Of a stretch of DNA of 64,000 nucleotides, positions 90 through 61,602 are shown in pieces. Under the pieces are notes generated by a model that searched no databases, was not told the DNA's origin, and worked only from the letters and a program-made list of their open reading frames with translations. A program made the translations under genes and the position numbers. Each line of letters starts with the position of its first letter. Positions within the stretch are counted from its first letter, which is position 1. Source of the stretch: a virus; IMG/VR virus record IMGVR_UViG_3300025436_000002, positions 106,201 through 170,200 of that record. One strand, given 5' to 3'.

Positions 90-281
90 ATGAGTAGTAA
101 CTTACTTAGTAATAATACTCTTAACACTTCATACCTTGAGAGAAGCGAGTATGGTCATTTATTGGATATTCAATCAGACTTTGAACAAGTTAGAAGCGAA
201 GTAGCTAGATACTCAGGGAGGTTGATAACTGATCAGAAAGCTCTAGATAAACATATGATGATGAGAGAGTTATTAAAATGA
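90..281 (+). CDS. C-terminal-tag family small protein (probably begins upstream of window)
   Basis: Ends LDKHMMMRELLK*; stop overlaps next ATG (ATGA). Confidence 0.75.
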   Translation: MSSNLLSNNTLNTSYLERSEYGHLLDIQSDFEQVRSEVARYSGRLITDQKALDKHMMMRELLK

Positions 282-619
282 AAATAAAAGAGTTATTACT
301 AGATTTTATAATACTACTTAATGTATTAGTACTGCCTACCCTGCTTCCAGAGATGTGTTGGATGAAAGTATGCTTTGAAGAATTCAATTATAGTCATCCC
401 TTAATATCATGGCTAACCATGATAATTCCAGTTGTCGTATATTTCAAGGTTGCCTCATTCCTACTCCCTAAATTTATACTGTACGTATTTCCGAAAAGAT
501 TTTTAGACTCTAATTTAGAAGCTAGATATGGAACTCTGACAGATGAACAAGCTACAGTATTTATAGTTTTACTTATAGGTATTGGACTCATATTTGCTTT
601 AATTAATTTATATATTTAA
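278..619 (+). CDS. Hypothetical membrane protein
   Basis: Three hydrophobic segments; ATGA-coupled to upstream tag gene. Confidence 0.7.
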   Translation: MKIKELLLDFIILLNVLVLPTLLPEMCWMKVCFEEFNYSHPLISWLTMIIPVVVYFKVASFLLPKFILYVFPKRFLDSNLEARYGTLTDEQATVFIVLLIGIGLIFALINLYI

Positions 620-631
620 GGAGTTACTAAT

Positions 632-871
632 ATGAAATGTAAAATTATCGCAATAGTTTTGATTAAGGAAAGTCGTAGAGTTACTAGACTATATTTTATG
701 GATGAAAATTCCACACTATGCTATGTACATCCATGGCTACCAACTCGATTTATAAGTGCATGTAGGGATTTAAAATCATTATCTAAGATCTTTCATAGTC
801 CAGACACGGAGTTAATTATAGATAAAAATAAAATTAACAAGTATATTATGGCACAGGGGTTATTGAAATGA
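632..871 (+). CDS. C-terminal-tag family small protein
   Basis: AGGAG RBS; ends INKYIMAQGLLK*. Confidence 0.85.
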   Translation: MKCKIIAIVLIKESRRVTRLYFMDENSTLCYVHPWLPTRFISACRDLKSLSKIFHSPDTELIIDKNKINKYIMAQGLLK

Positions 872-1101
872 TGGAATATGTAGCCCTAGTTCTTATAAAT
901 AATGTACTAGAATTAGGGTATTTTTATCAGGAAGATAGGCTTTGTTATAGTTACTTTAATGGTTGCGGTTTCTATTATATCAGTCGTCACATCACATTAG
1001 AGACGTGTCTAAAAAATAGTTCTAAATTTTTAGGGTACTCAGTAGTAACGGATATAAAATGCATGAATAAACATCTTATGGCACAGGAGTTATTGAAATG
1101 A
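868..1101 (+). CDS. C-terminal-tag family small protein
   Basis: Starts MMEYVAL; ends MNKHLMAQELLK*. Confidence 0.85.
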   Translation: MMEYVALVLINNVLELGYFYQEDRLCYSYFNGCGFYYISRHITLETCLKNSSKFLGYSVVTDIKCMNKHLMAQELLK

Positions 1102-1352
1102 TGGAATATGTAGCTCTTGAGATAACTAAATATGCATGGATTAAAAATTTGATAAGTTACTATGCATTAGACGTGAGTGGAGTATTGCATTTTAAACCTG
1201 ATGACTGGAATCTCTACAGACCGAGTAATCTAACTTTAGAAGAGTTATTAGAACTACATAAACCCGAGGGTATCAGATCAGAGTATTCTTACCTAATAAC
1301 TGATAAAAAAGAGATAGCTAAATACTTAATGACGAGAGAGTTATTGAAATGA
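1098..1352 (+). CDS. C-terminal-tag family small protein
   Basis: Starts MMEYVAL; ends IAKYLMTRELLK*. Confidence 0.85.
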   Translation: MMEYVALEITKYAWIKNLISYYALDVSGVLHFKPDDWNLYRPSNLTLEELLELHKPEGIRSEYSYLITDKKEIAKYLMTRELLK

Positions 1353-1771
1353 TGATTAGTTTTATAATAGGTTCCCTATGGCTTATATTTATATGGAAGA
1401 TTTGGACTCTGTTCCGAGATCAACCTGTTGAAGAGTCCGTTAGATTCCCTAAGGAAATTTGGAATTGGCAAGGGGGCTTTAGATCAGATTGTGGAGATAC
1501 TCCTTTCTGTATTGGATACCTAGATAAAGGTATTCTAGCTAATGGGGAGTGGAGTACTGCTGTGTTCTTTAAACTATGGTTCGAAGAAGGGACTAAAACG
1601 TATTGGGGCTCTTTCTTGCACATGGGACATCACATGATAGTTAGATCATTAACTGATGACTATAACGAAATACTCTTGGATGCTCGGAGTAAAGTGGGTT
1701 CTGATTTAAAGTTTGTTGAAGGTACCCGAGAAGTAGGTAGATTCTTAATGACACAGGAGTTACTTAGATGA
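1349..1771 (+). CDS. C-terminal-tag family protein with N-terminal TM anchor
   Basis: Hydrophobic N-terminus; ends VGRFLMTQELLR*. Confidence 0.85.
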   Translation: MMISFIIGSLWLIFIWKIWTLFRDQPVEESVRFPKEIWNWQGGFRSDCGDTPFCIGYLDKGILANGEWSTAVFFKLWFEEGTKTYWGSFLHMGHHMIVRSLTDDYNEILLDARSKVGSDLKFVEGTREVGRFLMTQELLR

Positions 1772-2312: not shown

Positions 2313-2325
2313 TTTAACGCATCTA

Positions 2326-2354
2326 TTGACTTTATATTTATAAGATGCTATTAT
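2326..2354 (+). promoter_or_regulatory. sigma70-like promoter
   Basis: TTGACT-N17-TATTAT with TG extension, then GTAAGGTTAA and AAGGAG RBS. Confidence 0.75.
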
Positions 2355-5540: not shown

Positions 5541-5810
5541 TTGAAGGATAAAGAATACTTATTTAAACAATACTTTCCTGCCCCCAAGTATACTACTTAC
5601 TATTTTGTATTAGGGGGTAAGCTTATGGCGGAGAGAAGATATGCTAGTAGACGAAGCCCTGAGACCTACGAGTGTGGTCTTAAGTTAAGCCAGTTATATT
5701 TTTGTGAGGGAGATACTAATTTATATTTTTGTGTGGGAGATATTAATTCCGAGATATTAAATGAATCTTTATTAAATAGATACCTAATGCTAGAGGAGTT
5801 GAGTAAGTGA
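5541..5810 (+). CDS. C-terminal-tag family small protein
   Basis: Ends LNRYLMLEELSK*. Confidence 0.85.
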   Translation: MKDKEYLFKQYFPAPKYTTYYFVLGGKLMAERRYASRRSPETYECGLKLSQLYFCEGDTNLYFCVGDINSEILNESLLNRYLMLEELSK

Positions 5811-6091
5811 ATCTTAAGTGTAATAACTTTTTAAAATATTTCGGAACTATCAAAAATTCAAGAATAGGTGACATTACTATACTCGGTTATGCGAGGAATC
5901 TTGGATGTCTCCATGGAAGTTTTTCCGAAATGTATCTGAGGAGATATGGGGATACTCTCCTTGATAGTAAGGAAGCACTTCCTGTATCTTTTAATGATGT
6001 AGAGGTACGTTCTTTCATGGGGGTCAGTTGTAATGATTTCGATATTCAAGAGGTTATGAAGTATTCAATTATGTTGGAGCTATTGAGATGA
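5807..6091 (+). CDS. C-terminal-tag family small protein
   Basis: GTGA-coupled; ends VMKYSIMLELLR*. Confidence 0.8.
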   Translation: MNLKCNNFLKYFGTIKNSRIGDITILGYARNLGCLHGSFSEMYLRRYGDTLLDSKEALPVSFNDVEVRSFMGVSCNDFDIQEVMKYSIMLELLR

Positions 6092-6196: not shown

Positions 6197-6418
6197 ATGT
6201 TTACGAAGAAAAGGTACTCAGGTATCTTAATTAACAAACTTGATGATTCCGACTTTGTGTACTGTATTTTCCATGGGGAGAGATTGTGCTACTATATAGG
6301 TAGCCATCTCTATAAGTCGGAAAGTACTCTTAAGAAGATGTTGAGTATTGGGGATTATAAGATACTAGAGGGTATGGAATTAGATAAGTACTTAATGACG
6401 GAGGAACTGTTGAAATGA
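6197..6418 (+). CDS. C-terminal-tag family small protein
   Basis: Ends LDKYLMTEELLK*; close paralogue of 6700..6921. Confidence 0.85.
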   Translation: MFTKKRYSGILINKLDDSDFVYCIFHGERLCYYIGSHLYKSESTLKKMLSIGDYKILEGMELDKYLMTEELLK

Positions 6419-6651
6419 GTTCTATAAAATATTTAGGCCTAGTGACCCATTTCCCTACAAATACTACTCTACTGTACTACAAACAAGACAGAATTAACTT
6501 AGTTAGAACTACTCAAGGAGAGCCATGGCCATCTGGCTACACTGAAACAGAGTTAGCTAGGGACATGGCGAAATATAATAAAGACTTTCTGTATGTTACG
6601 GACAGATTGGAGATATTAAAAACAATCATGACATGGGAGTTATTGAAATGA
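6415..6651 (+). CDS. C-terminal-tag family small protein
   Basis: Ends ILKTIMTWELLK*. Confidence 0.85.
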   Translation: MSSIKYLGLVTHFPTNTTLLYYKQDRINLVRTTQGEPWPSGYTETELARDMAKYNKDFLYVTDRLEILKTIMTWELLK

Positions 6652-6703
6652 AGAAAAGAGGATACTTAATAAATATCTAATGTGCGGAGAGTTATTAAAA
6701 TGA
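6648..6703 (+). pseudogene. Deleted tag-family cassette (orphan tag)
   Basis: ATG 6648 opens only 10 codons; another frame reads ILNKYLMCGELLK* whose TGA overlaps ATG 6700. Confidence 0.7.
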
Positions 6704-6921
6704 GTAGACTCACGAAAGGATATTCAGGACTCCTTATTAATAGGTTCGATGAGACTGATTATATCTACTGTATCCATGGCAATAGCCTTTGGTATTACAG
6801 AGATGGAAGTTTAATAAAATCATGTCTTAGTGTAACTGATAAAATGAATAGGGGCGGGTACAAAATATTAAAAGGAAAAGAACTTAATAAGTACCTAATG
6901 ATATCGGAGTTATTAAAATGA
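6700..6921 (+). CDS. C-terminal-tag family small protein
   Basis: Start at ATG 6700 (MSRLTKGYSG); ends LNKYLMISELLK*. Confidence 0.85.
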   Translation: MSRLTKGYSGLLINRFDETDYIYCIHGNSLWYYRDGSLIKSCLSVTDKMNRGGYKILKGKELNKYLMISELLK

Positions 6922-7214
6922 CGTATAAAGAATACAGTATCCCTATACACTATTTTAGGGAGGATAGCCCCAAGGATTATTTAAACAAAGTTATTCTAAT
7001 TATAGATAACGGAACGTATACTGTTAGATACTATTATTTGGACCATGTTCTAAAATATTATACTATGTATAAATGCGGTTCTAAATCATGGGGCAGAGTT
7101 GCTATAATACAAAACTTAGATGATATTAGATCTACTAGCCTCTCTCTAGGACATAAGGTACTCGAAGGTTTAGAGCTTGGTAAGTTTCTTATGATGGAGG
7201 AGTTACTAAAATGA
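6918..7214 (+). CDS. C-terminal-tag family small protein
   Basis: Ends LGKFLMMEELLK*. Confidence 0.85.
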   Translation: MTYKEYSIPIHYFREDSPKDYLNKVILIIDNGTYTVRYYYLDHVLKYYTMYKCGSKSWGRVAIIQNLDDIRSTSLSLGHKVLEGLELGKFLMMEELLK

Positions 7215-7513
7215 AATTAAGGGTAACTAAGGAAGGAGTGTCTCTGGATTCTCTTACAACTGTACTAGCTATTATTATATCTAACTACAACGGTAATATA
7301 GTATATAACTTCTATTATAAGATAACAAATTTTAATACTATACGTTTAAGTCCTGATCTGGCATTCGATGTCCAGTACGTTCTCAGATCCGATTTTAAGA
7401 GTGTAGAGGATATTGTAGCTAAATTTAAGACCTCTCCTGTAAAGATTGTTACGGGAGCCGACTTAGTCGGAGAGATTAATAAATATTTAATGATACATGA
7501 GTTGATGAAATGA
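7211..7513 (+). CDS. C-terminal-tag family small protein
   Basis: Ends INKYLMIHELMK*. Confidence 0.85.
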   Translation: MKLRVTKEGVSLDSLTTVLAIIISNYNGNIVYNFYYKITNFNTIRLSPDLAFDVQYVLRSDFKSVEDIVAKFKTSPVKIVTGADLVGEINKYLMIHELMK

Positions 7514-7758
7514 GTAGAGAATACGTAGCTATATCTATTAAGAATTACTCCGACAGGGATAGGTGCACTATAAAATATTACTGGGAGAGTTATAGCCTCT
7601 GCTACATAATCTCTGATGAATTTGGAACTGTTGAGGAGTATGCCGATACAAGTATATTAATGGAGGAATTAAATAAGGATAAGGAGTCTGGGTTTGAAGT
7701 TATATCTGGTAGGCTTGAGGTTGCAAAATACCTAATGATGCAGGAATTATTGAATTAA
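7510..7758 (+). CDS. C-terminal-tag family small protein
   Basis: Starts MSREYVAI; ends VAKYLMMQELLN*. Confidence 0.85.
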   Translation: MSREYVAISIKNYSDRDRCTIKYYWESYSLCYIISDEFGTVEEYADTSILMEELNKDKESGFEVISGRLEVAKYLMMQELLN

Positions 7759-10856: not shown

Positions 10857-11105
10857 GTGTACATAATAGGTAAGGCTACAGTACTGAAGATAGCGATATG
10901 TAAAGATACAAAGGTAGCTTACATGATTAGAGGGTGGGGATGTCTATGTCAGTCTAATATAGATTATGATTGTGTAGAAACTACTACTGGGAGTGTAAGG
11001 CGTATTACTGAAAAAACTGCCTTCAATATAGACCTTGACAACTACGATGTTCTTGAAGGGACTGGTATGAATAAATATTTAATGGCATTGGAGTTAAGTA
11101 AGTGA
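10857..11105 (+). CDS. C-terminal-tag family small protein
   Basis: Ends MNKYLMALELSK*. Confidence 0.85.
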   Translation: MYIIGKATVLKIAICKDTKVAYMIRGWGCLCQSNIDYDCVETTTGSVRRITEKTAFNIDLDNYDVLEGTGMNKYLMALELSK

Positions 11106-11307: not shown

Positions 11308-11449
11308 ATGAGTTATGTAGAAGATGTCTTAGAGTTAGTAAGATTTACGGAGTTAGTTAACGATAATTCCATGGGGGGGTGGGTTGGATATTGAAATACT
11401 CTTGAAGGAATATAGGAAATATCTTATGATGAAGGAACTATTAAAATGA
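11308..11449 (+). pseudogene. Tag-family ORF frameshifted in a G7 run
   Basis: GGAGG RBS, ATG 11308; G7 at 11373-11379; G6 gives a continuous ORF ending YRKYLMMKELLK* overlapping ATG 11446. Confidence 0.7.
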
Positions 11450-11682
11450 AGATGGTAGCTGTAATGACAGATGTTCAGAATCCTGAGATAATTTGTTATT
11501 ATTTTGAAAAAGAAGGATACAAGTATCTATTACTTGAGGATAATGGGGAAAACTGGGTGCAGTACACGGGGCATACTCTAGAAACATTACTAGACACGGG
11601 AAGGTTGTCTAATAATTTTAATGTCACAACTGATTCCTTAGAAATTAACAAACATTCCATGCTGAGAGAGCTGTCGAAGTAG
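11446..11682 (+). CDS. C-terminal-tag family small protein
   Basis: Ends INKHSMLRELSK*. Confidence 0.85.
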   Translation: MKMVAVMTDVQNPEIICYYFEKEGYKYLLLEDNGENWVQYTGHTLETLLDTGRLSNNFNVTTDSLEINKHSMLRELSK

Positions 11683-13259: not shown

Positions 13260-13622
13260 TTGGTAAGCATGGCTAAAAAACTAGAAATAAGTATAGGGGA
13301 TATAATTACTATTGCTAGAGCTACTGGATATTTTAGATACGTAGCTAGTTTACCTAGAATAGGTTATCACGATGTAAAAGTATTTGTCAAAGAACTTGGA
13401 TCTGGAGGGAAAATTGACTCTTCTGATTATAAAGTGGAGAGGATCGGCTTTGTGGGGATAGCTAAAGTATCCAAAGAGTCTCTTGATGAGATGTATAATA
13501 AAGAATTAAAGAGTATTGAAGGACGTAAGATTAGACTCGAAGCTAAGAAAAAAATATTATCAAAATTGACTAAACCCTCTGAGATAGCTAAATTCTTAAT
13601 GACAAGGGAACTATTGAAATGA
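13260..13622 (+). CDS. C-terminal-tag protein with unrelated body (coiled coil)
   Basis: Ends IAKFLMTRELLK*. Confidence 0.85.
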   Translation: MVSMAKKLEISIGDIITIARATGYFRYVASLPRIGYHDVKVFVKELGSGGKIDSSDYKVERIGFVGIAKVSKESLDEMYNKELKSIEGRKIRLEAKKKILSKLTKPSEIAKFLMTRELLK

Positions 13623-13885
13623 AACACGAAGATTATCTTACGGATGATAAAGGACTTATATACTTAGACTCTCTCAAAGCTGAGGGTCTAACCTTTAAAT
13701 ATGTTCCTAAATGGACATCTAAATATAATAGTTATGTGGTATATGACTATGAACCTTTCTGTGCTGATGGATTCTATGTTTCAGTCGATCTTGAAGGGGA
13801 TGAATCCATGGTTAATTATGTAGTATATCTGTGTGATAAAAGAAAAGAAGGTATCGAGAATATCAAGAGGTGCTTTAATGAGTAA
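13619..13885 (+). CDS. Hypothetical protein
   Basis: ATGA-coupled; C-terminal NYVVYLCDKR resembles NYILYLCEKR of 26903..27196. Confidence 0.7.
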   Translation: MKHEDYLTDDKGLIYLDSLKAEGLTFKYVPKWTSKYNSYVVYDYEPFCADGFYVSVDLEGDESMVNYVVYLCDKRKEGIENIKRCFNE

Positions 13886-14123
13886 AGAGTACGTAATTAT
13901 CGCCAAATTTTTTGATGACGGGCCAACACTGGAGTATTTTAGATATCCAGATAATTCTAATGATATTTACTATATGTTTTCAAATTGTACTAATCTAGAA
14001 AGTAGACATCCTTATAGTGTTGATCGTATAGTATGTGATCTTAGTCAAAGGAATACTGTAATGTTGTTAACAAATAAAAAAGATATAGATAAATACCTAA
14101 TGACCAAAGAATTATTAAAATAG
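13878..14123 (+). CDS. C-terminal-tag family small protein
   Basis: Likely start MSKEYVII at 13878; ends IDKYLMTKELLK*. Confidence 0.85.
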   Translation: MSKEYVIIAKFFDDGPTLEYFRYPDNSNDIYYMFSNCTNLESRHPYSVDRIVCDLSQRNTVMLLTNKKDIDKYLMTKELLK

Positions 14124-14125
14124 AT

Positions 14126-14189
14126 TGTAAAGTTTCATTTCAATAACCTTACTGAGAGTCTTGACGACTCTCTTTTTTTATGCTATCAT
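14126..14189 (+). promoter_or_regulatory. sigma70-like promoter fused to terminator hairpin
   Basis: TGTAA at 14126; TTGACG(14161)-N17-TATCAT; -35 lies in the loop of gagagtc/gactctc followed by T7. Confidence 0.75.
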
Positions 14190-14556: not shown

Positions 14557-14811
14557 GTGAGGGAATACATACTTTTTGAAAGGTATTGGAACTACGAACA
14601 TAAATACTACTACGTCGAAGATGAAGTTACCTATTGGGTATATTCTGGAGGAGGTCCTCCTGCTATTTCAGCATGGCAAGGCGAGGCGGATGTTAAAAGG
14701 TTAGTCCGTATTACTAAACTTGATAGTCTTGAAAAGGTACAACCTTATATATTAACTATTGGACATCGTGAAGTGGCTAAGTTATTAATGGAGATAGAAT
14801 TGCTAAAATGA
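14557..14811 (+). CDS. C-terminal-tag family small protein
   Basis: Starts MREYIL; ends VAKLLMEIELLK*. Confidence 0.85.
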   Translation: MREYILFERYWNYEHKYYYVEDEVTYWVYSGGGPPAISAWQGEADVKRLVRITKLDSLEKVQPYILTIGHREVAKLLMEIELLK

Positions 14812-15041
14812 AAAAAGTCTTAGCTCTTATACTTGATATGGAGTCTAATGAGATAATTTGTAGGATAGCTTGTGATACCTATGGAAATACGTTCACTTCG
14901 TTAGGCGGTGTTAATTGGAGATATGCTCAAAAACCTATGTCCTACTACATAAGTTCTGTTAACTTAGGAGAGGGTTATTACGCTGTAACATCTCCAGAGG
15001 GTGTTGATGAGTTACTTATGGTTGAGGAGCTATTAAAATGA
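14808..15041 (+). CDS. C-terminal-tag family small protein
   Basis: Ends VDELLMVEELLK*. Confidence 0.85.
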   Translation: MKKVLALILDMESNEIICRIACDTYGNTFTSLGGVNWRYAQKPMSYYISSVNLGEGYYAVTSPEGVDELLMVEELLK

Positions 15042-15307
15042 AAAGAAGGTTTATTTATTTAGGGCATTCCAATACCTACTACCCAGGTGGATCAGGTAAT
15101 ACATGTTACAATAGATATTATTACTTTAGAGACGAAGAGTATACAGTATATCTCTCGGATATTTGTTATCCTACTAAACATAGTCTATCCCGAATATCAT
15201 CAGATCGTCTGAAATGTAGGCTACACGGGGCAGGAGGACATGTCATGTGTAAACGGAGTAAAAAGAGTATATCTAAATTTTTAATGACTAAGGAGTTATC
15301 TAAATGA
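15038..15307 (+). CDS. C-terminal-tag family small protein
   Basis: Ends ISKFLMTKELSK*. Confidence 0.85.
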   Translation: MKRRFIYLGHSNTYYPGGSGNTCYNRYYYFRDEEYTVYLSDICYPTKHSLSRISSDRLKCRLHGAGGHVMCKRSKKSISKFLMTKELSK

Positions 15308-15600
15308 CTAAAAAGTATATAGGACTTATTCTAGGGAGGTACAGTAGGTGCGGAGATTTTAATTTCTATTCACCTTCCATGAAGATATACTATGTTGAAA
15401 ATAGAATTTGTTATCAAAGTGTTGTATTTGACGAGATTCCCGTCATGCCAAACCTTTATAATAAAACATTTACTATGGATACAAGTTATGCTAGAGTAGC
15501 ATTTGACTTAATTATAGCTAAAAGACATAGTTGTCTAACAGTCATTACAAACCATGCTGAGATTATAAAATATTTAATGACGGAGGAACTATTAAAGTGA
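15304..15600 (+). CDS. C-terminal-tag family small protein
   Basis: Ends IIKYLMTEELLK*. Confidence 0.85.
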   Translation: MTKKYIGLILGRYSRCGDFNFYSPSMKIYYVENRICYQSVVFDEIPVMPNLYNKTFTMDTSYARVAFDLIIAKRHSCLTVITNHAEIIKYLMTEELLK

Positions 15601-15641
15601 AGATTAATAAATTCTTAATGTTAAAGGAGTTATCTAAATGA
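15597..15641 (+). CDS. 14-aa tag-only micro-ORF MKINKFLMLKELSK
   Basis: GTG overlaps upstream stop (GGAGG RBS); TGA overlaps ATG 15638; entirely in frame. Confidence 0.65.
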   Translation: MKINKFLMLKELSK

Positions 15642-45636: not shown

Positions 45637-47385
45637 ATGAGTTTAGAAAATATTAGACAACTTAGTAAAGGACTTTTAAATGAAGGTCTTAATAGAAATG
45701 TATATCAAAAGATTATTAAAGATATCGAACTAGGTATTGAGCTTGAGGTTATTTATAATGGGGATAACATTTATAGACATGGCGGAGACTCTGATGAGCA
45801 AGATGCTGTGATAGATTTCAGTTCTGACCTGTCTTACTTCAAAGGTCAACTTAAAGCTTTTGAGGAGATAGCTGATTTCTTCTATGACATGTTAAAGCCA
45901 GATACTTTTAAATATCTGAGATCTAAGGGCGAGAAGTATGTCCCACATATTACAGAGTTTAGTTCAAATTTTGAAGGTTCTTTATATCGTCTTAAGAATG
46001 ACGTTGAATCTGAGCTTGACGAACGTATACAAGAGTGTGAAGACATCTATGATACATATGAAAGATATATACCAGAGATTGAAGATATGCCCAACAAATA
46101 TTTTCTTGAATATACTGAAGTGCCTTATGGTGAAGGACATGGAAACTTTACCTATCCAGAGGATGCGGAAGTTACTTATGAAAAAGAGATAACTGAGGCT
46201 AAGGGTAAGTTGTTAGATGTACTGGGAGATCGTCTTATTGAATTATATAATCAAAAATATGAACTAGACCCTGCTAAAAAGAATACTCTTCATGCTGTCG
46301 AATTAACTATAGATGACTATTCTGGAGGAGGTAGTGAGGTAGGTAGTGAGGTAGGTAGTGAAGGAGGTGTTGATCCTGATGACGTAAGACGTTATCTTGA
46401 AGATACTACTGCTGGAGAACTCATGACTGAATTTGAGGTTGAAGGTTTAGGTCAATGGAGTTATGAAACAGATAGTTCCCTTAATGAGGGAGGGGTTGAA
46501 TTGGTATCCCCTGTTGTAGGTTTTGATGATTTCGTAAATTTAATACCTCAACTCTGTAATGCTCTGAATGCAGAATCTTTTGAATCTGATGAATCTTGTG
46601 GTTATCATATAGGCTTGTCTAGTTACAACTTTAATATCCAAGATATGATTAAACAGATTATGGATTACTATAAAGCTAAAGGTTATAACTTATTAACTTC
46701 TTACATAATAGCTACTCAACAAGGGTATAAAGCTACTTATAGACATAATGATAAGTATAGTAGGGACGAAACTACTTCCTATGCAGAATCATTGATGAGT
46801 TGGGTAGGTGGCCATCGTCTAAGAAGTAAGAGTTTTGATGAGATACTACACTCTAATGAATTTGATACAGAAGTGCTTAAATTTATGAACAGTAAGTATT
46901 CAAATACAAACTTATTGCATAAAAACTATGTAGAACTTAGGGTTCTGGGGGGCGGAAAAGGTTTTAGAGTTCTTAGAAATGAAAGTATGCTAAGAAAATA
47001 CCTATATGATGCTATCTCACAAGTTTATGGAGGTATTGATTTTGATTCCGAAGGTAAAGTTATTGTCAAAGAAGTGTCTGCTAAAGAAATAGTTAAGCTA
47101 GTTGACTTTTATGTTAGGGGTATTAATTATAAAGGAGCTCCTTCTAGTAATCCTACTTCTCAAAGTCACTTGGATAAGTCTAAAGAATATAAAGAGAAGA
47201 GAAAGACTGCTCAATGGAATAAGGGAGTTGAAAAAGCTAAAGAATCTACCCCTATAAAAGTTGGAGATATAACTAATCTAGGAAAAGTCACGGAGATTCT
47301 TAAAGGTGGAGAACAGTACGTAATCAATGGTGTAATACATAGTGCACGTAATGTACGTAGTTTAGAAGACGAGGTTCCATTTTAG
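45637..47385 (+). CDS. Putative amidoligase paralogue 4
   Basis: LGIELE, TDSSL..GVELVSP, CGYHIGLS, YVELRVLGG; leader MSLENIRQLSKGLLNE. Confidence 0.8.
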   Translation: MSLENIRQLSKGLLNEGLNRNVYQKIIKDIELGIELEVIYNGDNIYRHGGDSDEQDAVIDFSSDLSYFKGQLKAFEEIADFFYDMLKPDTFKYLRSKGEKYVPHITEFSSNFEGSLYRLKNDVESELDERIQECEDIYDTYERYIPEIEDMPNKYFLEYTEVPYGEGHGNFTYPEDAEVTYEKEITEAKGKLLDVLGDRLIELYNQKYELDPAKKNTLHAVELTIDDYSGGGSEVGSEVGSEGGVDPDDVRRYLEDTTAGELMTEFEVEGLGQWSYETDSSLNEGGVELVSPVVGFDDFVNLIPQLCNALNAESFESDESCGYHIGLSSYNFNIQDMIKQIMDYYKAKGYNLLTSYIIATQQGYKATYRHNDKYSRDETTSYAESLMSWVGGHRLRSKSFDEILHSNEFDTEVLKFMNSKYSNTNLLHKNYVELRVLGGGKGFRVLRNESMLRKYLYDAISQVYGGIDFDSEGKVIVKEVSAKEIVKLVDFYVRGINYKGAPSSNPTSQSHLDKSKEYKEKRKTAQWNKGVEKAKESTPIKVGDITNLGKVTEILKGGEQYVINGVIHSARNVRSLEDEVPF

Positions 47386-47386: not shown

Positions 47387-48955
47387 ATGAGTTTAGAGAA
47401 TATAAGACAACTTGGAAAAGGACTTTTAAACGAAGGTCTTAATAGAAATGTTTATCAAAGAATCATTAAAGATATAGAACTCGTTATTGAACTTGAAGTT
47501 ATTTATGAGAACGATTTGATGGGTGGGGATGATTTATCCTCTGGGCAGGATTCTTATTTGGACGACATCTATATTGGGGATGATGCAGACTCTTTCAATG
47601 CTAAAATAGTAGAGTTTAACGATTATATAGATACTATTTACCATATTCTAGGAAACCAATGTTTTGACTACTTACACGAGAAAACTAACATATACCTTCC
47701 TAATGATGTAGAGGAACTAGATACTAATATTAGTGGAGATAGTCATAGCCTTCTAAATGAACAAAAATCTGAAATAGATAAGAGACTTAATGAATGTGAA
47801 ACCATAATAGAAGACTATAATAAATACTTAAAAATATTTAAAGATATACCTGACGAAGCTTGGATTGACGACACTGGATTAGAAGGCGAAGAGCTCCTAG
47901 AGGCTAAACAAAAAGACTTTGAAGATTTCCTACTATATGTGCATAATTTAAGTAATATTTTAGATACCCTCAAATCCCTAAAGGCAGAGTTATTAATGGG
48001 TATTGAAATGATAATTGAGCAACCAGTTTCTGATAACATCGGGAATGGGAGTGGGCGTGACTCTGACGAATCTCAAGCTGATCTTGTAATGAATGATATA
48101 GAACATACTGGACCTGTAAGACTTATGAGGGAAATGGATGAATTTGATATTAGTGGTAAGAGATCATGGGAATTCGTAGATGACGGTTCTTTGAGTTCTG
48201 GAGGGGTCGAGATGGTATCCCCAGTAGTATCCTATAAAAATTTTATTGATTATATTCCTAGAATATGTACGTCTTTAGCTGAGAATGGATTCCATGCTGA
48301 TAAATCTTGCGGTTATCATATAGGATTGTCCAGTAGTTCCTTTAGTCTCCCAAGCCTTATAAGCGATACAATAGAACATTATGGAAAGCTCGGATACAAC
48401 AAATTAACATCTACTATCATAGCTACTCAACAAGGTTATAAAACTGTCTTTAGACACAACAATCCAGAACGAGATGAAAGTTATAGGTACACTATATCTC
48501 TTTTAGACCATGTTATCTTTGCTACTTCATATCAGGATAGTATGACGGGAGATACTCTTGATGCTATTAAGAATTCCAGTCTTGATGATCTACTCCACTC
48601 TAATAAATTCGATGCCTCTGTTGCTAAGTTCCGTATCGAAAAATTTACAAACGTAAATAGACTCCACAATAATAAATATATTGAGCTCAGAGTACTTGGA
48701 GGTGTTGAGGGATTCGAGATTCTCAAAGATGAGAATAAACTAAAGAGATATTTATATGATGCTATCTCTCAAGTCTATGGAGCGGTTGATTTTGATAAGG
48801 CTACTGGAGAAGCTAAAATTAAAGAGATGTCTGCTAACGAGATAGTTAAGCTTATGGATTTCTATTTAAGAAAAGTGAGACAGGAGAGAGAGCCTGATAA
48901 TGTTTATAAACAAAATAGGGAAGCTATTAAACTTAGAAATAATGGAGGATTGTGA
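47387..48955 (+). CDS. Putative amidoligase paralogue 5 (recent duplicate of paralogue 4)
   Basis: LVIELE, DDGSL..GVEMVSP, CGYHIGLS, YIELRVLGG; leader MSLENIRQLGKGLLNE. Confidence 0.8.
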   Translation: MSLENIRQLGKGLLNEGLNRNVYQRIIKDIELVIELEVIYENDLMGGDDLSSGQDSYLDDIYIGDDADSFNAKIVEFNDYIDTIYHILGNQCFDYLHEKTNIYLPNDVEELDTNISGDSHSLLNEQKSEIDKRLNECETIIEDYNKYLKIFKDIPDEAWIDDTGLEGEELLEAKQKDFEDFLLYVHNLSNILDTLKSLKAELLMGIEMIIEQPVSDNIGNGSGRDSDESQADLVMNDIEHTGPVRLMREMDEFDISGKRSWEFVDDGSLSSGGVEMVSPVVSYKNFIDYIPRICTSLAENGFHADKSCGYHIGLSSSSFSLPSLISDTIEHYGKLGYNKLTSTIIATQQGYKTVFRHNNPERDESYRYTISLLDHVIFATSYQDSMTGDTLDAIKNSSLDDLLHSNKFDASVAKFRIEKFTNVNRLHNNKYIELRVLGGVEGFEILKDENKLKRYLYDAISQVYGAVDFDKATGEAKIKEMSANEIVKLMDFYLRKVRQEREPDNVYKQNREAIKLRNNGGL

Positions 48956-55659: not shown

Positions 55660-56043
55660 ATGAGAAAGATTAGATCGGATTATCTATTAAAGAATTGGAA
55701 AAAATTAAATATATCCGAGCTACAAGCTATAAGAAATAAAGTAGACTGGCATTATATATCCAACAATAAACATGTCATAGATTTAGAATTCTTAGACATG
55801 TTTAATAATAACGTAGTTTGGGAACTTATCTCTTATCATAAATTAAGTGATGAAATAATTAGTAAACACTTTAAGCTATTAAGCCAATCTTTAGTCATAT
55901 ACAATAATGTACTGAGTGAGGAATTTATATTAAAGAATATAGATAAATTTATGGAGTATGTGGACTTAATAAAAGCTTATCAGAAGCATATTCCAGAAAA
56001 AACCTTGAATAAGATAATGATGATTAAAGAGATGAGTAGATAA
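55660..56043 (+). CDS. Trp-repeat protein with C-terminal tag
   Basis: VDW..IS / V.W.LIS..LS.E.I repeats; ends LNKIMMIKEMSR*. Confidence 0.75.
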   Translation: MRKIRSDYLLKNWKKLNISELQAIRNKVDWHYISNNKHVIDLEFLDMFNNNVVWELISYHKLSDEIISKHFKLLSQSLVIYNNVLSEEFILKNIDKFMEYVDLIKAYQKHIPEKTLNKIMMIKEMSR

Positions 56044-57986: not shown

Positions 57987-58044
57987 CAATAACTTAGTAA
58001 ATAAGGATTAGCATGTTGACATTAGCTTGTTTATATGCTAATCT
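57982..58044 (+). promoter_or_regulatory. sigma70-like promoter with TGTAA box
   Basis: TGTAA-N8-TAGTA at 57982; TTGACA(58016)-N17-TAATCT; IR gattagcat/atgctaatc. Confidence 0.7.
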
Positions 58045-58076
58045 TTATTTGTAGGGTAAATTTAAAGGAGACACAC

Positions 58077-59309
58077 ATGGCTTCCGATTTAAAACAATTG
58101 CAACGTAAGGTATTTTTAGCTCAGAGTAAGCTTATGCATAAAGAGTTTTGTTTCTTTGGATGTTTGAGTCTTTGGCTGAAGTATCGTATTGACGATTCCA
58201 TTGAAACGGCTGCTACTAATGGGAGTGAGATAATATTCAATTCTGAATTCCTTGATAAAATGAACATGGGAGAATTAAAATGGGTTATGGCTCACGAAAT
58301 TATGCATATTGCATTGGGTCATATTAGAAGAAAAGGTACAAGAGATCACATGGTTTTCAACTATGCAAGTGATTTCGCCATACACTCTATTCTTAAAGAA
58401 TTTGAAGCTGATACATTCAAGATGCCTGAGGGTTGTTTATATGATAAAAAGTATGACGGCATGTGTTCCGAAGCTATTTATAATGACATAGCCCAACAAA
58501 TTAGTGAAGGCAAGGGCAAAGCTATGAAAACATTAGATGACCATGGTCAATGGGGCAAGGATCCTGCCAAAGGTCAAGGTGATCCAGATGATAAAGATGG
58601 TGAAGGCTGTGAGATGGGTGAAGTCTCTGAGGACGAGTGGAAACAAAGGATGGAAGATGCAGCAAAGTTAGCTGCTGGAAAGATGGAGGGGAAAACTCCT
58701 TCATTCCTTAAGGATTTATTAGCTAATCTTCAACCTCCTAAAAAGGATTGGAGACAGTTGCTCTCTGAATTTATCCAACCTGAGGTAGCAGACTACTCTT
58801 TTAACCCTCCAGATAAGAGATTATATTCCATGTCTGAATGCCTGCTACCTGATTTTAATGATGAAGAAGAGACTGTTAAAAATATAGCATTCTTTATAGA
58901 TATCTCAGGATCTATGAGTGAGCAAGATATTTCAGATGCGTATTCTGAAATTGTGGGAGCTATCAATCAATTTGGATCCATGAGTGGGTATTTGGGATAC
59001 TTCGATACAGCTATACACAACTTTGAAAAATTTGAGGATGTCAAGGATGTTATAAAAAATAAACCTCATTCTGGAGGAGGAACTGACTTCGAAGCATGTT
59101 TTAGATTTCTTAAAGATACCGATGTCGTAGACATGCAGGGTATCGTTGGAATTGTTATTTTATCCGATGGGGAGTGTGGGTTTGGAAATTCATATAAACT
59201 TTCTGAGGGAATTCCCACTCTTTTCTTGTTTACCGATGATCATATTCCTAAAGCACCTTTCGGTACCACATCTTATCTAAGATATAGGAAGAGCCTGAAC
59301 TCACATTAA
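58077..59309 (+). CDS. DUF2201-like metallopeptidase + vWA domain protein
   Basis: TAATNG, HEIMH zincin motif, N.A.D.AI; MIDAS DISGSM, GGGTDF, LSDGE. Confidence 0.9.
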   Translation: MASDLKQLQRKVFLAQSKLMHKEFCFFGCLSLWLKYRIDDSIETAATNGSEIIFNSEFLDKMNMGELKWVMAHEIMHIALGHIRRKGTRDHMVFNYASDFAIHSILKEFEADTFKMPEGCLYDKKYDGMCSEAIYNDIAQQISEGKGKAMKTLDDHGQWGKDPAKGQGDPDDKDGEGCEMGEVSEDEWKQRMEDAAKLAAGKMEGKTPSFLKDLLANLQPPKKDWRQLLSEFIQPEVADYSFNPPDKRLYSMSECLLPDFNDEEETVKNIAFFIDISGSMSEQDISDAYSEIVGAINQFGSMSGYLGYFDTAIHNFEKFEDVKDVIKNKPHSGGGTDFEACFRFLKDTDVVDMQGIVGIVILSDGECGFGNSYKLSEGIPTLFLFTDDHIPKAPFGTTSYLRYRKSLNSH

Positions 59310-59327: not shown

Positions 59328-60194
59328 TTGTCTAATAAAGTAGGAATATATCAAATACGGAATACTATAAACGGGAAGGTTTATGTAGGAAGTTCAATAC
59401 GCATGAATCATAGAAAATACGAGCATTTCTGTGACCTCAATAAGGGGAAACATCATAGTATTAAACTCCAGAGGGCTTACAATAAGTATGGGAAAGATAG
59501 TTTTATATTTGAAGTTATAGAATGTATCCAACTAACTGAGGACTTGGGTATCAACTCAAAATTAATAACGGCTAGGGAGCAATTTTACATAGATTCTAAA
59601 AATTCATATACACTTGGTTACAACAGTAGACCTCTAGCTGAAACTAACTTAGGATGTAAACGCTCGGAGGATGTAAAAAGAAAAATGAGTATATCCTTCA
59701 GAGGGTCTCTTAATCCTAACTTCGGTAAAACAATGCCTGACAATATTAAAAAGAGGATAAGTGATGCCAAAATGGGTAGAAAAAATCCACATACTTCAGA
59801 ACAAGATAGACGAATAGGAGAATCTAATCCTAATAAGAGAAAAGTTATAAATTTAACAACTTTGGAAGTATACGTTAGTGTATCTAAAGCTTCTTCTGAA
59901 ACAGGTGTTGATAGAGTTAGTCTTTATAGATGTTGTCAAGGTAAGTACGGGAGTGCTGGAGATTTTATATGGGCTTACTATAATGAAAGTATAAGCTATT
60001 CCAAGATACTTCCCTCTCCCGTTTCCACTAGACCTAAAAAAGTTATTAATTTGACCAAGGGCATTATATACGAAAGTTTAAATCAAGCTTCCTTGGATGT
60101 AGGTTCATCATGTTCATGTATTAGGAGATGTTGTAAAGGTAAACGTAAAACTTCTGGCGGATTTGAGTGGGCTTACTATACAGAAAAAGTTTAA
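59328..60194 (+). CDS. GIY-YIG homing endonuclease with NUMOD repeats
   Basis: GIYQIRN..NGKVYVGSS; NPNFGK; two NUMOD1-like C-terminal repeats. Confidence 0.9.
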   Translation: MSNKVGIYQIRNTINGKVYVGSSIRMNHRKYEHFCDLNKGKHHSIKLQRAYNKYGKDSFIFEVIECIQLTEDLGINSKLITAREQFYIDSKNSYTLGYNSRPLAETNLGCKRSEDVKRKMSISFRGSLNPNFGKTMPDNIKKRISDAKMGRKNPHTSEQDRRIGESNPNKRKVINLTTLEVYVSVSKASSETGVDRVSLYRCCQGKYGSAGDFIWAYYNESISYSKILPSPVSTRPKKVINLTKGIIYESLNQASLDVGSSCSCIRRCCKGKRKTSGGFEWAYYTEKV

Positions 60195-60227
60195 ATTCAC
60201 ATTAGTTTACAATTGAGAATCCAAGTA

Positions 60228-60256
60228 TTGACTTATTAAAAATAATCTGCTATTCT
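60228..60256 (+). promoter_or_regulatory. sigma70-like promoter
   Basis: TTGACT-N17-TATTCT with TG extension, then GTAAGGTT. Confidence 0.7.
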
Positions 60257-60317
60257 AATTAGGTAAGGTTTTAAAAAAAGTTTAAGTTTAATTATTATGT
60301 AGAAAAAGGGGAAAAAC

Positions 60318-61394
60318 ATGGCTAACATTTCAAGTAAAATCAGGGTTAATGAATTAATTAATTTAATGGCAGACTATTGTACTTCTGCTACATCACCTAA
60401 GGATGTTGAACCAATAATGCTTTGGGGATCTCCAGGGGTAGGGAAGTCTCAAGCCATGAAGCAAGTAGGAGAAACTTTAGAGAAAAGGCTAGGTAAGAAA
60501 GTAAAAGTTACTGACATAAGACTTGTAAATTACAGTCCAGTAGATTTGAGAGGTATCCCAGTTCCGAATGATGACAAAACTTTAGCAATATGGTTAAAAC
60601 CTTTGGTATTCCAAATGGATGACAGTCCTGATGTTATAAATATCCTAATCCTAGATGAAATATCAGCAGCTGCTCCAAGCATTCAAGCGTCTGCTTATCA
60701 AATAGTCCTAGATAGAAGACTCGGAGAACACTTAATTCCAGACAACTGTTTAATAATGTGTGCAGGTAATAGAGTCACAGATAAGTCAGTAGCTTACAAG
60801 ATGTCTAAAGCGTTAGGAAATAGACTTGTCCACTTAGACGTATCCGTAGATTTCGATGACTGGAAAACATGGGCACTTCCTAGAGGATTTGACAGTAGGA
60901 TTATGGGATTCTTAAACTGGAGGCAAGGTGCCGACCTCCACAAGTTTGACCCTTCCAATGATGAAAATTCTTTTTGTACTCCTAGAACATGGGAGAAGGT
61001 TAACAGTATCCTGAGTGTCTTGGATTTAGAACGAGCCATGAGTCTCATTTCAGGTACTATCGGAGACAGTACAGCTCATGAGTTTTACACGTATACTCGA
61101 TTGTATGGAGAGCTTCCGAATATGGAAACAATCTTAGCAGGGAAGTGTACTAAAGTTCCTACAAAACCTGATGTAAGTTTTGCATTAGTCTCCGCCTTAG
61201 TATGTCAAGCGTTAAAATCTAATGATGTTCAATTAACAAATATCCTAGAATACTCTTTCAAACTCAAAGATGAATTCAAAATATTACTACTCAAGGATTT
61301 AATAAAGTCATCTAAGGACATGTTACTTAAAATAGTTAATCATCCTAAATTTGAGAAATTTACAGAAGAGAATATGGACTTGTTGAGGGATTAA
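60318..61394 (+). CDS. MoxR-like AAA+ ATPase
   Basis: Walker A GSPGVGKS, DLRGIP, Walker B LILDE, AGNR, AL.NR, TPRTW. Confidence 0.92.
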   Translation: MANISSKIRVNELINLMADYCTSATSPKDVEPIMLWGSPGVGKSQAMKQVGETLEKRLGKKVKVTDIRLVNYSPVDLRGIPVPNDDKTLAIWLKPLVFQMDDSPDVINILILDEISAAAPSIQASAYQIVLDRRLGEHLIPDNCLIMCAGNRVTDKSVAYKMSKALGNRLVHLDVSVDFDDWKTWALPRGFDSRIMGFLNWRQGADLHKFDPSNDENSFCTPRTWEKVNSILSVLDLERAMSLISGTIGDSTAHEFYTYTRLYGELPNMETILAGKCTKVPTKPDVSFALVSALVCQALKSNDVQLTNILEYSFKLKDEFKILLLKDLIKSSKDMLLKIVNHPKFEKFTEENMDLLRD

Positions 61395-61395
61395 T

Positions 61396-61602
61396 ATGGC
61401 AAAGGTTATCTGGGGGAGACGTAATAGAAACACTCCCCCTTCCAAGATATCTATCTGGACTCCTCTTATGAGTGACGGAGAAGTATTAGAAAAACTTAAT
61501 GATTTTAGTGTCCAAGATATCGAATACCTTTTGAGGTATCAGTTACAGATATCTAAAATACTCCAAGGTAAGTTACGTATGTTATTAGAAATGTTAAAAT
61601 AG
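61396..61602 (+). CDS. Small protein with C-terminal tag variant
   Basis: Ends QGKLRMLLEMLK*. Confidence 0.7.
   Translation: MAKVIWGRRNRNTPPSKISIWTPLMSDGEVLEKLNDFSVQDIEYLLRYQLQISKILQGKLRMLLEMLK

Follow-up and report, generated by a model that had tools for sequence, protein, structure and literature searches.

Tag-bearing genes in the window

The window analyzed here, 64,000 nucleotides in length, spans bases 106201 to 170200 of the 170.2-kb record of an uncultured freshwater phage. On its plus strand, 36 open reading frames (ORFs) ended in a short C-terminal motif, here called the tag, as detected with the regular expression [LMI]M..E[LMI].[KRQNE] anchored at the stop codon; the minus strand of the window yielded no ORF matching that expression. 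The same search over the whole 170.2-kb record returned 65 ORFs, and 65 of the 66 matches in all three plus-strand frames of the record were in register with the stop. The original prediction for this DNA had counted 39 carriers and four cryptic copies, and both numbers were reproduced once degenerate tags, detected via a body-only profile or a C-terminal PSSM, were added to the regex set. The carriers added in this way were 632-871, 5807-6091, 11446-11682, 16079-16366, 25126-25371, 36846-37172, and 61396-61602, and the body-less copies were 6647-6703, 11357-11449, 15597-15641, and 34577-34615. Likewise borne out were a common first strand (M.[RK]EY[IV]AL) and a YY strand among the carriers, synonymous codon variation within the tag, and the presence of the tag without downstream coupling in genes ending at 2312, 7758, 11682, 14123, 37172, and 56043.

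All tag genes listed here lie on the plus strand. A family gene truncated by the start of the window (1 to 281, its start codon 27 bases upstream) ends in the tag DQKALDKHMMMRELLK and is ATGA-coupled. One run of six ATGA-overlapping family genes occupies 632 to 2312, comprising 632-871, with a degenerate tag in which E is replaced by G; 868-1101 and 1098-1352; 1349-1771, with an N-terminal transmembrane (TM) extension; 1768-2013, the member used for structure modeling; and 2010-2312, which has a TAA stop and is uncoupled. In the region 5541 to 6091, the family gene 5541-5810 comes first, followed by 5807-6091, whose protein is missed by the family profile and has a significant tag variant, KYSIMLELLR, at its end. 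Six more family genes lie between 6197 and 7758 (6197-6418, 6415-6651, 6700-6921, 6918-7214, 7211-7513, and 7510-7758), and among them a tag remnant without a body (6647-6703) supplies the Shine-Dalgarno (SD) sequence and ATGA to 6700-6921. The family gene at 10857 to 11105 bears the tag NKYLMALELSK and is GTGA-coupled. A second body-less remnant, 11357-11449, is followed by the family gene 11446-11682, with the degenerate tag INKHSMLRELSK.

The carrier at 13269 to 13622 is atypical, a 117-aa database orphan with four predicted strands, a long helix, and a canonical tag. The family gene at 13878 to 14123 ends in TAG, and 3' of it stands a repeated terminator/promoter stem-loop (14150-14189). 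The region 14557 to 15641 contains four family genes (14557-14811, 14808-15041, 15038-15307, and 15304-15600) and a 14-codon mini-ORF that consists of the tag only (15597-15641), which overlaps its upstream neighbor through GTGA and its downstream one through ATGA. Further along are a family gene at 16079 to 16366 with a degenerate tag in which M is replaced by V (IDKLLVIEELLK), an uncoupled one with a TAA stop (18028 to 18327), two overlapping ones within 18392 to 18960 (18392-18637 and 18634-18960), and a recent paralogue pair within 20351 to 20817 (20351-20584 and 20581-20817). The last part of the array holds a family gene at 24706 to 24981 (tag NRYLMVEELGR), one at 25126 to 25371 (degenerate tag VKYSMTRELLK), three with ATGA overlaps within 25579 to 26395 (25579-25857, 25854-26129, and 26126-26395), and the final family gene at 26628 to 26843 (tag NNLLMAEELGK). 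A cryptic tag-like short ORF at 34577 to 34615 (MLMCREMMK) is a weak match.

The carriers as one divergent domain family

By alignment and profile comparisons, about 62 tag carriers of 57 to 145 aa form a single divergent domain family. Some 62 complete copies, together with remnants, are spread over 89.4 to 133.0 kb of the phage genome and take up 17.3 kb, or ~10%, of it. A MAFFT alignment revealed an architecture common to the members. A leave-one-out profile built from bodies only, with the last 14 aa removed from each of 54 bodies, recovered 40 of the 54 at an E value of ≤1 and 28 at ≤0.1, against 0 of 54 shuffled and 1 of 54 reversed controls; the 14 bodies that were missed count against a one-family reading. 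The idea of a tag that serves chiefly as a portable label for otherwise unrelated proteins is thus not upheld. Two genes put forward as unrelated bodies also resemble the family: the "TM-anchored" 1349-1771 aligns over its full length with a family member, and in the "coiled-coil" protein starting at 13260 (here 13269-13622) residues 29 to 117 align with family members, so that it is probably a divergent member.

When 1.84 billion representatives were searched exhaustively with a family profile, 87 matches emerged, of which 39 came from this phage. The other 48, all foreign, were 72 to 125 aa long, mostly aligned near full length, and had the tag at the end. Among full-length ORFs searched with the body-only profile, none had a family-like body in an intact frame without a tag-like C terminus; helix and body therefore travel together. 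Ortholog dN/dS of the bodies was ~0.4 in a small sample, which argues that they are functional. No Pfam or PHROG family matched the family proteins, in agreement with the earlier claim that no such system had been described. This is a new family of unusual size, whose copies are diverging fast.

Predicted structure and the place of the tag helix

The AlphaFold (AF2) model of member 1768-2013 (pLDDT 92.3, pTM 0.81) is a compact domain of ~80 aa with the order β1-β2-β3-β4-α1-β5-α2 (β4-α-β-α), with the tag as helix α2 (residues 67 to 80, pLDDT ~92). Fold matches covered model residues 5-79/81, α2 included. These model scores and the span of the fold alignments argue for integration of α2, and we infer that the tag is a C-terminal helix belonging to the compact domain. 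Conserved positions (A7, Y21, Y22, L28, L49, I64, D66, M75, E78, and L79) fall in every secondary-structure element. The modeled fold is WGR-like. In the PDB, it matched 2ra8_A (Z 6.6, 70 aa aligned) and the WGR domains of PARP1/PARP3 (Z ~4.5), the best BFVD match was an annotated WGR-domain protein (prob 1.0), and four of eight ESM-Atlas rows carried PF05406 (TM 0.61 to 0.68). The likeness lies in structure alone: the Pfam WGR model matched none of the 54 members even at an E value of ≤10, and hhalign of the family against the WGR protein of Agrobacterium phage Atu_ph07 gave no match.

The reading that we favor, and consider reasonably probable, is that the tag belongs, as helix α2, to a single small domain that has been massively expanded in this phage lineage, not a label on unrelated proteins. 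The constant scaffold would consist of β1 (EYVAL), the YY strand, a Leu pair in α1, and helix α2 (D.KEI.KYLMxxELLK), with free variation in the β1-β2 loop and the β3-β4 hairpin, and the family would therefore resemble a binder library on one frame. Such binders would engage many different host or defense targets. The original prediction had named as evidence against itself that all members might fold as one domain with the last helix in the core; the results lean toward that outcome, with one family and a tag that is predicted to be α2 of a compact model.

Tags outside the family and a possible docking role

An alternative that we consider possible but distinctly less probable is that α2 is a constant docking helix that connects all carriers, a few unrelated bodies among them, to a single hub. 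Candidates for that hub would be a protease, a receptor for sorting or packaging, or a machine of the phage or its host, with the variable hairpin picking the cargo or target, which would make the family an adaptor or effector library. M75, E78, and L79 are invariant in 93 of 93 sequences; no core position is conserved to that degree, a pattern that is unusual if a helix has a structural role alone and that speaks against the favored reading. Judged from its sequence, the helix has hydrophobic residues on at least two faces. The MxxEL core also persists in distant lineages despite changed terminal residues and SD position.

Tags on proteins outside the family point the same way. Scored with a C terminus-anchored PSSM, for which 43,257 internal windows of non-family proteins gave a maximum of 2.5, four non-family proteins had significant degenerate tags (7 to 20) at their exact C termini, with MxxEL mostly kept: 5807-6091, 36846-37172, 42029-42439, and 55660-56043. 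The 136-aa protein at 42029 to 42439 ends in KDYKKALMAKELSK (PSSM 20.0), and its tag matches the one of a family gene (genome positions 93984-94337) at 10 of 13 residues, although the bodies do not align. The Trp-repeat protein at 55660 to 56043 (phrog_3532) ends in LNKIMMIKEMSR (PSSM 16.4) and had a tblastn match to a "tryptophan repeat gene family protein" of Bacillus phage BpSp. The 108-aa protein at 36846 to 37172 ends in KLSMMTELLK (PSSM 7.2); its gene adjoins, on the upstream side, that of an 841-aa amidoligase-domain protein. By comparison, the 68-aa protein at 61396 to 61602, ending in KLRMLLEMLK, is borderline (PSSM 0.2, chance expectation 0.02). The four non-family carriers make some portability of the tag possible, and they weigh against the favored reading, as unselected by-products of recombination would be expected to decay.

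However, no hub partner of the helix was identified, ~90% of the carriers are one domain with the helix modeled inside a compact fold, and every family-like body that the body-only profile finds among intact full-length ORFs comes with a tag-like C terminus. Moreover, the tags on foreign bodies are more degenerate (7 to 20 bits, against a family median of 33), which decay after recombination fits better.

Selection on the peptide and overlay of coupling signals

In 47 of 65 cases the tag ends in ATGA or GTGA, with GGAG, formed by codons xxG-GAG, 8 nucleotides upstream. GAG (Fisher P = 0.03) and the preceding G (4e-5) are enriched only before ATGA/GTGA, in agreement with the earlier proposal that this part of the tag doubles as the SD of the next gene. 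The ribosome-binding overlay on the tag DNA is real. It would be very improbable, however, that the conserved stretch is a DNA or RNA element only, for coupling, as a recombination junction, or both, with the peptide incidental, even though body-less remnants retain just the tag and its coupling signals, breakpoints between relatives fall inside tag DNA, and contigs from public runs break at tags because some of these have 31-mers or longer stretches in common. Codons for Leu at -8 (P = 0.25) and Tyr at -9 (P = 0.96) match genome usage. Conservation at the amino acid level extends over 16 to 18 codons at gene ends, reaching 8 codons upstream of the SD, also in genes without an ATGA/GTGA overlap. 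In the 18 tags lacking that overlap, M, E, and the -3 residue (Leu, or Met in two) are kept in 18 of 18, and Glu is GAA in half; these uncoupled tags have TAA or TAG stops, a few with a TAATG start next, and are as conserved as the coupled ones. In L033 and L032, two distant relatives, M-x(1,2)-E-L persists with different terminal residues (TA, IS, TI, and VDA), and L032 retains E-L even where the SD is encoded after EL. Codon usage, uncoupled tags, and distant relatives thus agree with the earlier argument for selection on the peptide beyond the RBS/ATGA nucleotides, and nucleotide-only conservation is largely refuted by the codon data.

The last four or five codons encode both the SD of the next gene and its ATGA/GTGA start, which overlaps the tag, so that translation would be coupled along the array. 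Under the favored reading of one expanded domain, the gene ends (the tag plus the MN[RK]EYVAL of the next gene) would act as short homologies at which unequal recombination adds, deletes, and reorders cassettes, which would explain the expansion and the body-less remnants and probably also the degenerate tags on a few non-family proteins. Relative L022 has an altered gene order and one replaced cassette, with all breakpoints inside tag DNA, which suggests cassette shuffling. The array contains three PeSL-like terminator/promoter stem-loops, and promoter-like sites (99) are slightly above the shuffled expectation (84 ± 8). The family is probably made from host-type promoters, and its expression may be early.

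That α2 is instead a C-terminal degron or membrane-targeting helix, for timed destruction of early proteins or for membrane delivery, is highly doubtful: it lies at the very C terminus, forms a helix, and has many Leu, Met, and Lys residues, and one member (1349-1771) has an added TM segment, but the helix lacks clean amphipathicity, is a high-confidence part of a compact model and no floppy tail, and to our knowledge does not resemble ssrA- or MuA-type C-terminal degrons.

Comparison with known systems

The closest structural likeness is to stand-alone WGR proteins (PF05406; the 99-aa protein of Atu_ph07, the N-terminal part of 2ra8, and the domains of PARP1 and PARP3), which are the best or recurrent matches in PDB, BFVD, and ESM Atlas. 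Both groups are ~80 to 100 aa and have an antiparallel sheet followed by a helix, a strand, and a C-terminal helix. A G-Y pair ahead of the last strand occurs in about one-third of the family and in the Atu_ph07 protein (...KDGYTE...), whose C terminus is likewise a helix rich in Leu. However, there is no sequence-level match, the W-G-R triad is not conserved, and the invariant M..EL helix is specific to the tag family. We know of no 60-copy arrays of WGR proteins. The "tryptophan repeat gene family" of Bacillus phage vB_BpuM-BpSp is likewise a lineage-specific expansion of small proteins in a large phage, but the tag family differs in fold, in its much higher copy number (~62, 10% of the genome), and in its head-to-tail copies with dual-coding junctions.

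In T4-type hyperplastic regions, conserved junction elements (PeSLs) mediate modular shuffling. The tag array shares with them dense, small, fast-evolving genes, conserved boundaries as recombination points, and PeSL-like stem-loops (three here), but its junction is coding (last helix plus next first strand) where the PeSL is an intergenic promoter stem-loop. T4 internal proteins have diverse bodies with a common short capsid-targeting sequence, and thus also a terminal peptide common to divergent proteins; the tag, by contrast, is C-terminal with no sign of a cleavage or packaging role, and most of its bodies are homologous. Translationally coupled overlapping genes have the same ATGA/GTGA overlap with the SD inside the upstream ORF, as at 47 of 65 junctions here, but ordinary coupling constrains ~10 nucleotides and the tag array 16 to 18 codons at the amino acid level. 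In polymorphic toxin and cassette systems (PMC3482391), conserved junction motifs permit recombinational replacement of variable modules. The tag array resembles them in conserved ends around variable cores, stand-alone or remnant cassettes, and replacement at junctions. It differs from them in having no toxin, immunity, or trafficking domains, and in that the variable part is a hairpin inside a small domain, whereas in polymorphic toxins it is a swapped C-terminal domain.

A tandem gene array in an uncultured freshwater phage

The window is the final 64 kb (bases 106201 to 170200) of a 170.2-kb viral record. The record is about 90% complete by CheckV's estimate, encodes about 290 proteins in all, carries all of its long ORFs on the plus strand, and includes genes for a terminase, a portal, a prohead protease, a tail fibre, a helicase, and a DNA polymerase. 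No cultured phage has a polymerase more than 25% identical to this one, and when 8 kb and 10 kb of the window were compared by megablast with 50,697 phage records, nothing matched. The phage sequence is present in public freshwater metagenome runs. Together these results point to an uncultured freshwater phage from a lineage without a studied member. Given the divergent polymerase and the blank megablast search, there was no annotated relative for guidance, and the public runs listed as carrying the phage sequence include no RNA runs. Elsewhere in the record, a 1323-aa ORF (genome 10554-14525) has a weak terminase-large-subunit match and an HNH endonuclease segment at residues 964 to 1053, possibly an intein or a homing-endonuclease domain inserted there. 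Here and below, coordinates are those of the window unless marked as genome.

A stop-anchored pattern for the core of the C-terminal tag found 65 ORFs in the genome, 36 of them in the window, and none on the minus strand. In the three plus-strand frames the pattern matches 66 times, and 65 of these matches abut a stop codon. Once degenerate tags are added, the count for the window comes to 39 full-length carriers plus 4 copies without a body, in agreement with the original count. At E<1e-3, a family profile matched 62 genes in the genome, encoding proteins of 57 to 145 aa (median, 89) and spread over a stretch from 89.4 to 133.0 kb of the genome that has 122 called genes. The family genes total 17.3 kb, about 10% of the genome. 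Neither Pfam nor PHROG has an entry for the family, in agreement with the earlier view that it is undescribed, and a literature search on phage WGR proteins and similar tandem families found nothing pertinent. A scan of IMG/VR with the back-translated tag gave no matches beyond the phage's own record. Three candidates from the pattern scan of metagenomes (L020, L024, and L025) were rejected as chance matches positioned within large unrelated ORFs. Two metagenome contigs from more distant phages, L032 (ENA LIAN20-1 scaffold_6888, 4.9 kb) and L033 (JGI 3300047200, 1.5 kb), carry arrays of the small-domain family with the variant endings ...LMxxELTA, ...MxELID, and ...LMMTELVDA.

Most tagged proteins belong to one domain family

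BLASTP of the bodies without their last 20 aa linked just eight small clusters, and by that measure the bodies seem unrelated. A leave-one-out profile search was then made with bodies lacking their last 14 aa and with paralogues of more than 35% identity left out. With a cutoff of E<=1 the search recovered 40 of the 54 bodies, and with one of E<=0.1 it recovered 28, versus none of 54 shuffled bodies and 1 of 54 reversed bodies. An exhaustive profile search of 1.84 billion representatives returned 87 matches, comprising 39 of the phage's own proteins and 48 foreign relatives of 72 to 125 aa, most of which match over nearly their full length and end in the tag; fused or longer forms were absent among the 87. 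Members with damaged tags (E to G, L to S, or M to V) were still recognized via their bodies, and a body-only profile found, among full-length ORFs, none with a family-like body and an intact frame that lacked a tag-like C terminus.

The structure of one member (1768-2010), predicted by AlphaFold2 with 54 paralogues as the alignment, reached a pLDDT of 92.3 and a pTM of 0.81. Its topology is β(5-10)-β(17-24)-β(27-34)-β(37-43)-α(49-58)-β(62-64)-α(67-80), in which the tag is the last helix, α2. Among 93 aligned sequences, conserved columns occur in every secondary-structure element: Y5, V6, A7, and L8 in β1; Y21, Y22, and Y23 in β2; G26, L28, and Y30; L49 and L53 in α1; G60, Y61, and I64; a capping-box pattern with D66 as the helix N-cap and E69; and I70, K72, Y73, L74, M75, E78, L79, L80, and K81 in α2. 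Almost no information lies in residues 31 to 47, which form the β3-β4 hairpin, or in the β1-β2 loop. A homodimer prediction for a typical member, with two copies and the family alignment, scored 0.00, a value that says nothing either way.

About 62 carriers are therefore one domain family. The original prediction of a portable tag that docks unrelated bodies to a hub is not supported for about 90% of the carriers, on the profile and model results, and may hold for a few, as four nonfamily proteins have significant but degenerate tags. Two of the supposedly unrelated bodies align with the family. In the gene described as TM-anchored (1349-1771), residues 33 to 140 align with a family member, and in the one described as coiled-coil and placed at 13260 (13269-13622), residues 29 to 117 align with family members. 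The latter is atypical and probably a divergent member. A homologue search with it returned the query alone, and an AlphaFold2 model built with the family alignment had a pLDDT of 61, with the body below 55.

A few tags occur outside the family

A position-specific scoring matrix (PSSM) built from the last 14 residues was applied to the C termini of 226 nonfamily proteins and, for comparison, to their 43,257 internal windows. The internal maximum was 2.5 and the family median 33 bits. Six nonfamily C termini stand out: 42029-42439 (20.0), 5807-6091 (16.5), 55660-56043 (16.4), genome 100962-101252 (13.6), 36846-37172 (7.2), and 61396-61602 (0.2). In 55660-56043 the body is of a Trp-repeat family (phrog_3532; tblastn to the BpSp "tryptophan repeat gene family protein"), and a homologue search with it returned the query alone. 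The tag of 42029-42439 is identical at 10 of 13 positions to that of one family gene, and the two bodies do not align. Both proteins had been put forward as tagged unrelated bodies. Their bodies do lie outside the family and their tags are significant, but those tags are far weaker than the family median. By these scores, a few unrelated bodies really do appear to end in the helix, with tags much weaker than those of the family. We favor capture of these tags via junction recombination, followed by decay. The alternative, a docking element under selection, comparable to the T4 CTS or to clamp-binding tails, is kept alive by the retention of MxxEL.

Selection on the peptide and on the nucleotides

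The tag DNA also encodes signals for the next gene. At 47 of the 65 junctions the stop codon overlaps the next start as ATGA or GTGA, and a ribosome-binding site lies inside the upstream ORF at a functional spacing, as expected for translational coupling. Glu at position -4, counted back from the stop, is encoded by GAG in 37 of 47 coupled genes versus 9 of 18 others (Fisher p 0.03), and a G directly precedes the Glu codon in 41 of 47 versus 6 of 18 (Fisher p 4e-5). Together these form GGAG, ending 8 nt before the next ATG, and both are enriched only in coupled genes, which bears out the proposed overlay of a ribosome-binding site on the tag. Upstream of that site codon choice is free: codons for Leu at -8 and Tyr at -9 follow genome usage (p 0.25 and 0.96, respectively).

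The peptide is kept where coupling is absent. All 18 tags without an ATGA or GTGA overlap retain M and E, and position -3 is Leu in them, or Met in two. The distant arrays keep E-L despite altered endings, which are ...DPEEIDKxLMxxEL[TI][AISV]-stop in L033 and M-x(1,2)-E-L-[IV]-x(1-3)-stop in L032. Indeed, in one L032 gene the ribosome-binding site lies after EL, encoded by Ile-Gly-Gly codons, and E-L is still kept. The free codons upstream and the intact uncoupled tags point to selection on the protein, as originally proposed, and the distant relatives decide the matter: the M..EL helix is selected as protein. The final Leu-Lys and the choice of GAG are shaped by the downstream translation-initiation region. 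Selection on peptide and on nucleotides thus both act, in separable layers.

Probable cassette exchange at the junctions

Gene ends in the array are similar as DNA; for example, 48 nt across a tag and the next start (1738-1785) are 96% identical to genome 132296-132343. A 2-kb metagenome contig of a related phage (L022) has the gene order 12213/10906/11561-like/10532, where the phage studied here has 12213/11863/11561/11196/10906/10532. A novel 82-aa ORF stands in place of one cassette, two genes are missing, and two are swapped. Every breakpoint falls within tag DNA, with about 22 nt common to both flanks. Gain, loss, and reordering of cassettes with breakpoints at junctions, in the style of T4 hyperplastic regions, were all seen, in the small sample of this single contig. 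Three of the body-less copies in the window (15597-15641, 6647-6703, and 11357-11449) consist only of the tag and coupling signals; the first is a 14-codon ORF that overlaps both neighbors, and the other two are remnants. In a broken member (genome 101249-101483) the body is read in one frame and the tag in another, a break also present in a 98%-identical metagenome contig (L023). Ortholog dN/dS was about 0.42 for bodies and 0.30 for tags, from a small sample in which tags are partly nonorthologous because the breakpoints lie in tag DNA.

Other features of the gene ends were also observed. In L032, the 3' ends of two adjacent genes and the sequences downstream of them are identical, suggestive of a recent junction duplication. 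Four mapped freshwater DNA runs gave many "joints" at tags, with sides of only 23 to 46 nt; these were rejected as structural variants and are repeat artefacts, as contigs break at 31-mers shared among tags. A G+C-rich stem-loop with a T-run occurs in three copies (14150-14189, genome 89675-89714, and genome 90627-90664), with a -35 TTGAC in the loop and TGCTAT(T/C)(C/A)T 17 nt downstream. One copy shows compensatory stem changes (GAGAGTC/GACTCTC versus GAGAGCC/GGCTCTC), and two of the copies lie in about 95 nt of identical sequence that takes in the end of the preceding tag. The three resemble T4 PeSL terminator/promoter cassettes. Directly after one family gene's TAA stop comes a run of nine G's (genome 92845-92853), the genome as a whole being 34% G+C.

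Neighboring genes and proposed function

At least 10 proteins encoded between 27248 and 64000 share an N-terminal helix, M[IL][NKR]RIK[EN]L[IL]..[EK]L (MINRIKNLINEL, MLRRIKELLKLNE, MINKIKNILNEL, and others); examples start at 27248, 30238, 32175, 32917, 33293, 35129, 37218, 43090, 45637, 47387, and 63448. They include four Amidoligase_2-domain proteins and one ART-PolyVal protein, and many of the genes have a TTTATATT[TA]TAAAT motif upstream. They make up a second "shared terminus" set of this phage, an N-terminal one. Large enzymes form a cluster (27248-28729, 30238-32175, 37218-39743, 45637-47385, 47387-48955, and 58035-59309) that comprises the ART-PolyVal protein (E 5e-47), the four Amidoligase_2-domain proteins, and a DUF2201 metallopeptidase/VWA-like protein. 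ART-PolyVal, Amidoligase_2, and DUF2201 are domains characteristically found in "polyvalent" conflict proteins.

Small orphan genes are numerous in large phages, and the origin and diversification of such repertoires are poorly understood. The family described here is new and exceptionally expanded, and its junction has an unusual triple use: the last helix serves at once as a conserved peptide, as the site where ribosomes bind and start on the next gene, and as a joint at which cassettes recombine. It lets one mechanism of repertoire growth be seen plainly, in which about 62 copies have come from a single mini-domain, their ends constant and their hairpin variable.

The mechanism that we propose builds on four results: there is one domain family, its terminal helix is selected as a peptide, its junction is dual coding, with tag DNA that also supplies the next gene's ribosome-binding site and start, and in one relative the breakpoints fall at that junction. 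Beyond this, the members would be binders made of a scaffold and a variable hairpin, produced from host-type promoters, and their diversity would serve host takeover or counter-defence. Good TTGACA-17-TATACT-type sites lie in several intergenic gaps, with a slight overall excess. A more elaborate scheme, which we regard as rather unlikely, would make the M..EL helix a constant region docking about 65 hairpin-diversified mini-domains, and a few unrelated helix-capturing proteins, onto one hub, with the same-window proteins bearing the N-terminal helix M[IL]xRIKxL[IL] as the candidate; the outcome would be a combinatorial adaptor/anti-defence repertoire renewed by recombination at dual-coding junctions. 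Should the members bind proteins of the host or of its defences, the array would amount to a natural scaffold library, rich in candidates for counter-defence. A docking role of the helix would give phages a new way to organize effectors.

Comparison with WGR domains

At the sequence level the family did not match WGR domains. The Pfam WGR profile (PF05406; gathering score, 22 bits) matched none of 54 members at E<=10, and a six-frame search of the whole phage with it gave a sole match, of 14.6 bits at 29.6 kb, outside the family. A PDB profile search likewise gave no family match to WGR, and hhalign of the family alignment gave a probability of 1% against the WGR sequence of Agrobacterium phage Atu_ph07, a comparison with a single WGR sequence, as only two homologues toward a WGR profile were found. 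The Trp-Gly-Arg signature is absent from the central strand, where the consensus is Y-Y-[YWF]-x-[DG]-G-x-L; the Gly of this consensus occurs in 36 of 80 sequences, and Arg is not conserved.

Structure comparisons gave a different picture. Foldseek against the PDB found no match below E 1e-3, and an ESM-Atlas feature search gave no usable match, the Atlas's own model of a family protein being poor. The first rank by VIA-align was 2ra8_A (residues 1 to 78; Z 6.6; 3.2 Å over 70 aa), and the PARP3 and PARP1 WGR domains were also matched (Z 4.5 to 4.6). ESM-Atlas carried PF05406 on 4 of 8 rows, with TM of 0.61 to 0.68 over residues 5 to 81. The model has the WGR-type fold, an antiparallel sheet packed by helices in about 80 aa, with moderate scores and convergence of three independent libraries, and the alignments to WGR-type structures take in α2. 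We describe the predicted fold as WGR-like but keep the family apart from WGR, since the structural matches converge and none exists at the sequence level. This modeled fold suggests a possible nucleic-acid-binding role; we know of no function for stand-alone WGR domains. The best match in BFVD was the "WGR domain-containing protein" of Atu_ph07 (E 8e-3, prob 1.0), followed by other WGR, PARP, and ligase proteins. The Atu_ph07 protein itself has a G-Y motif and then a terminal Leu-rich helix.
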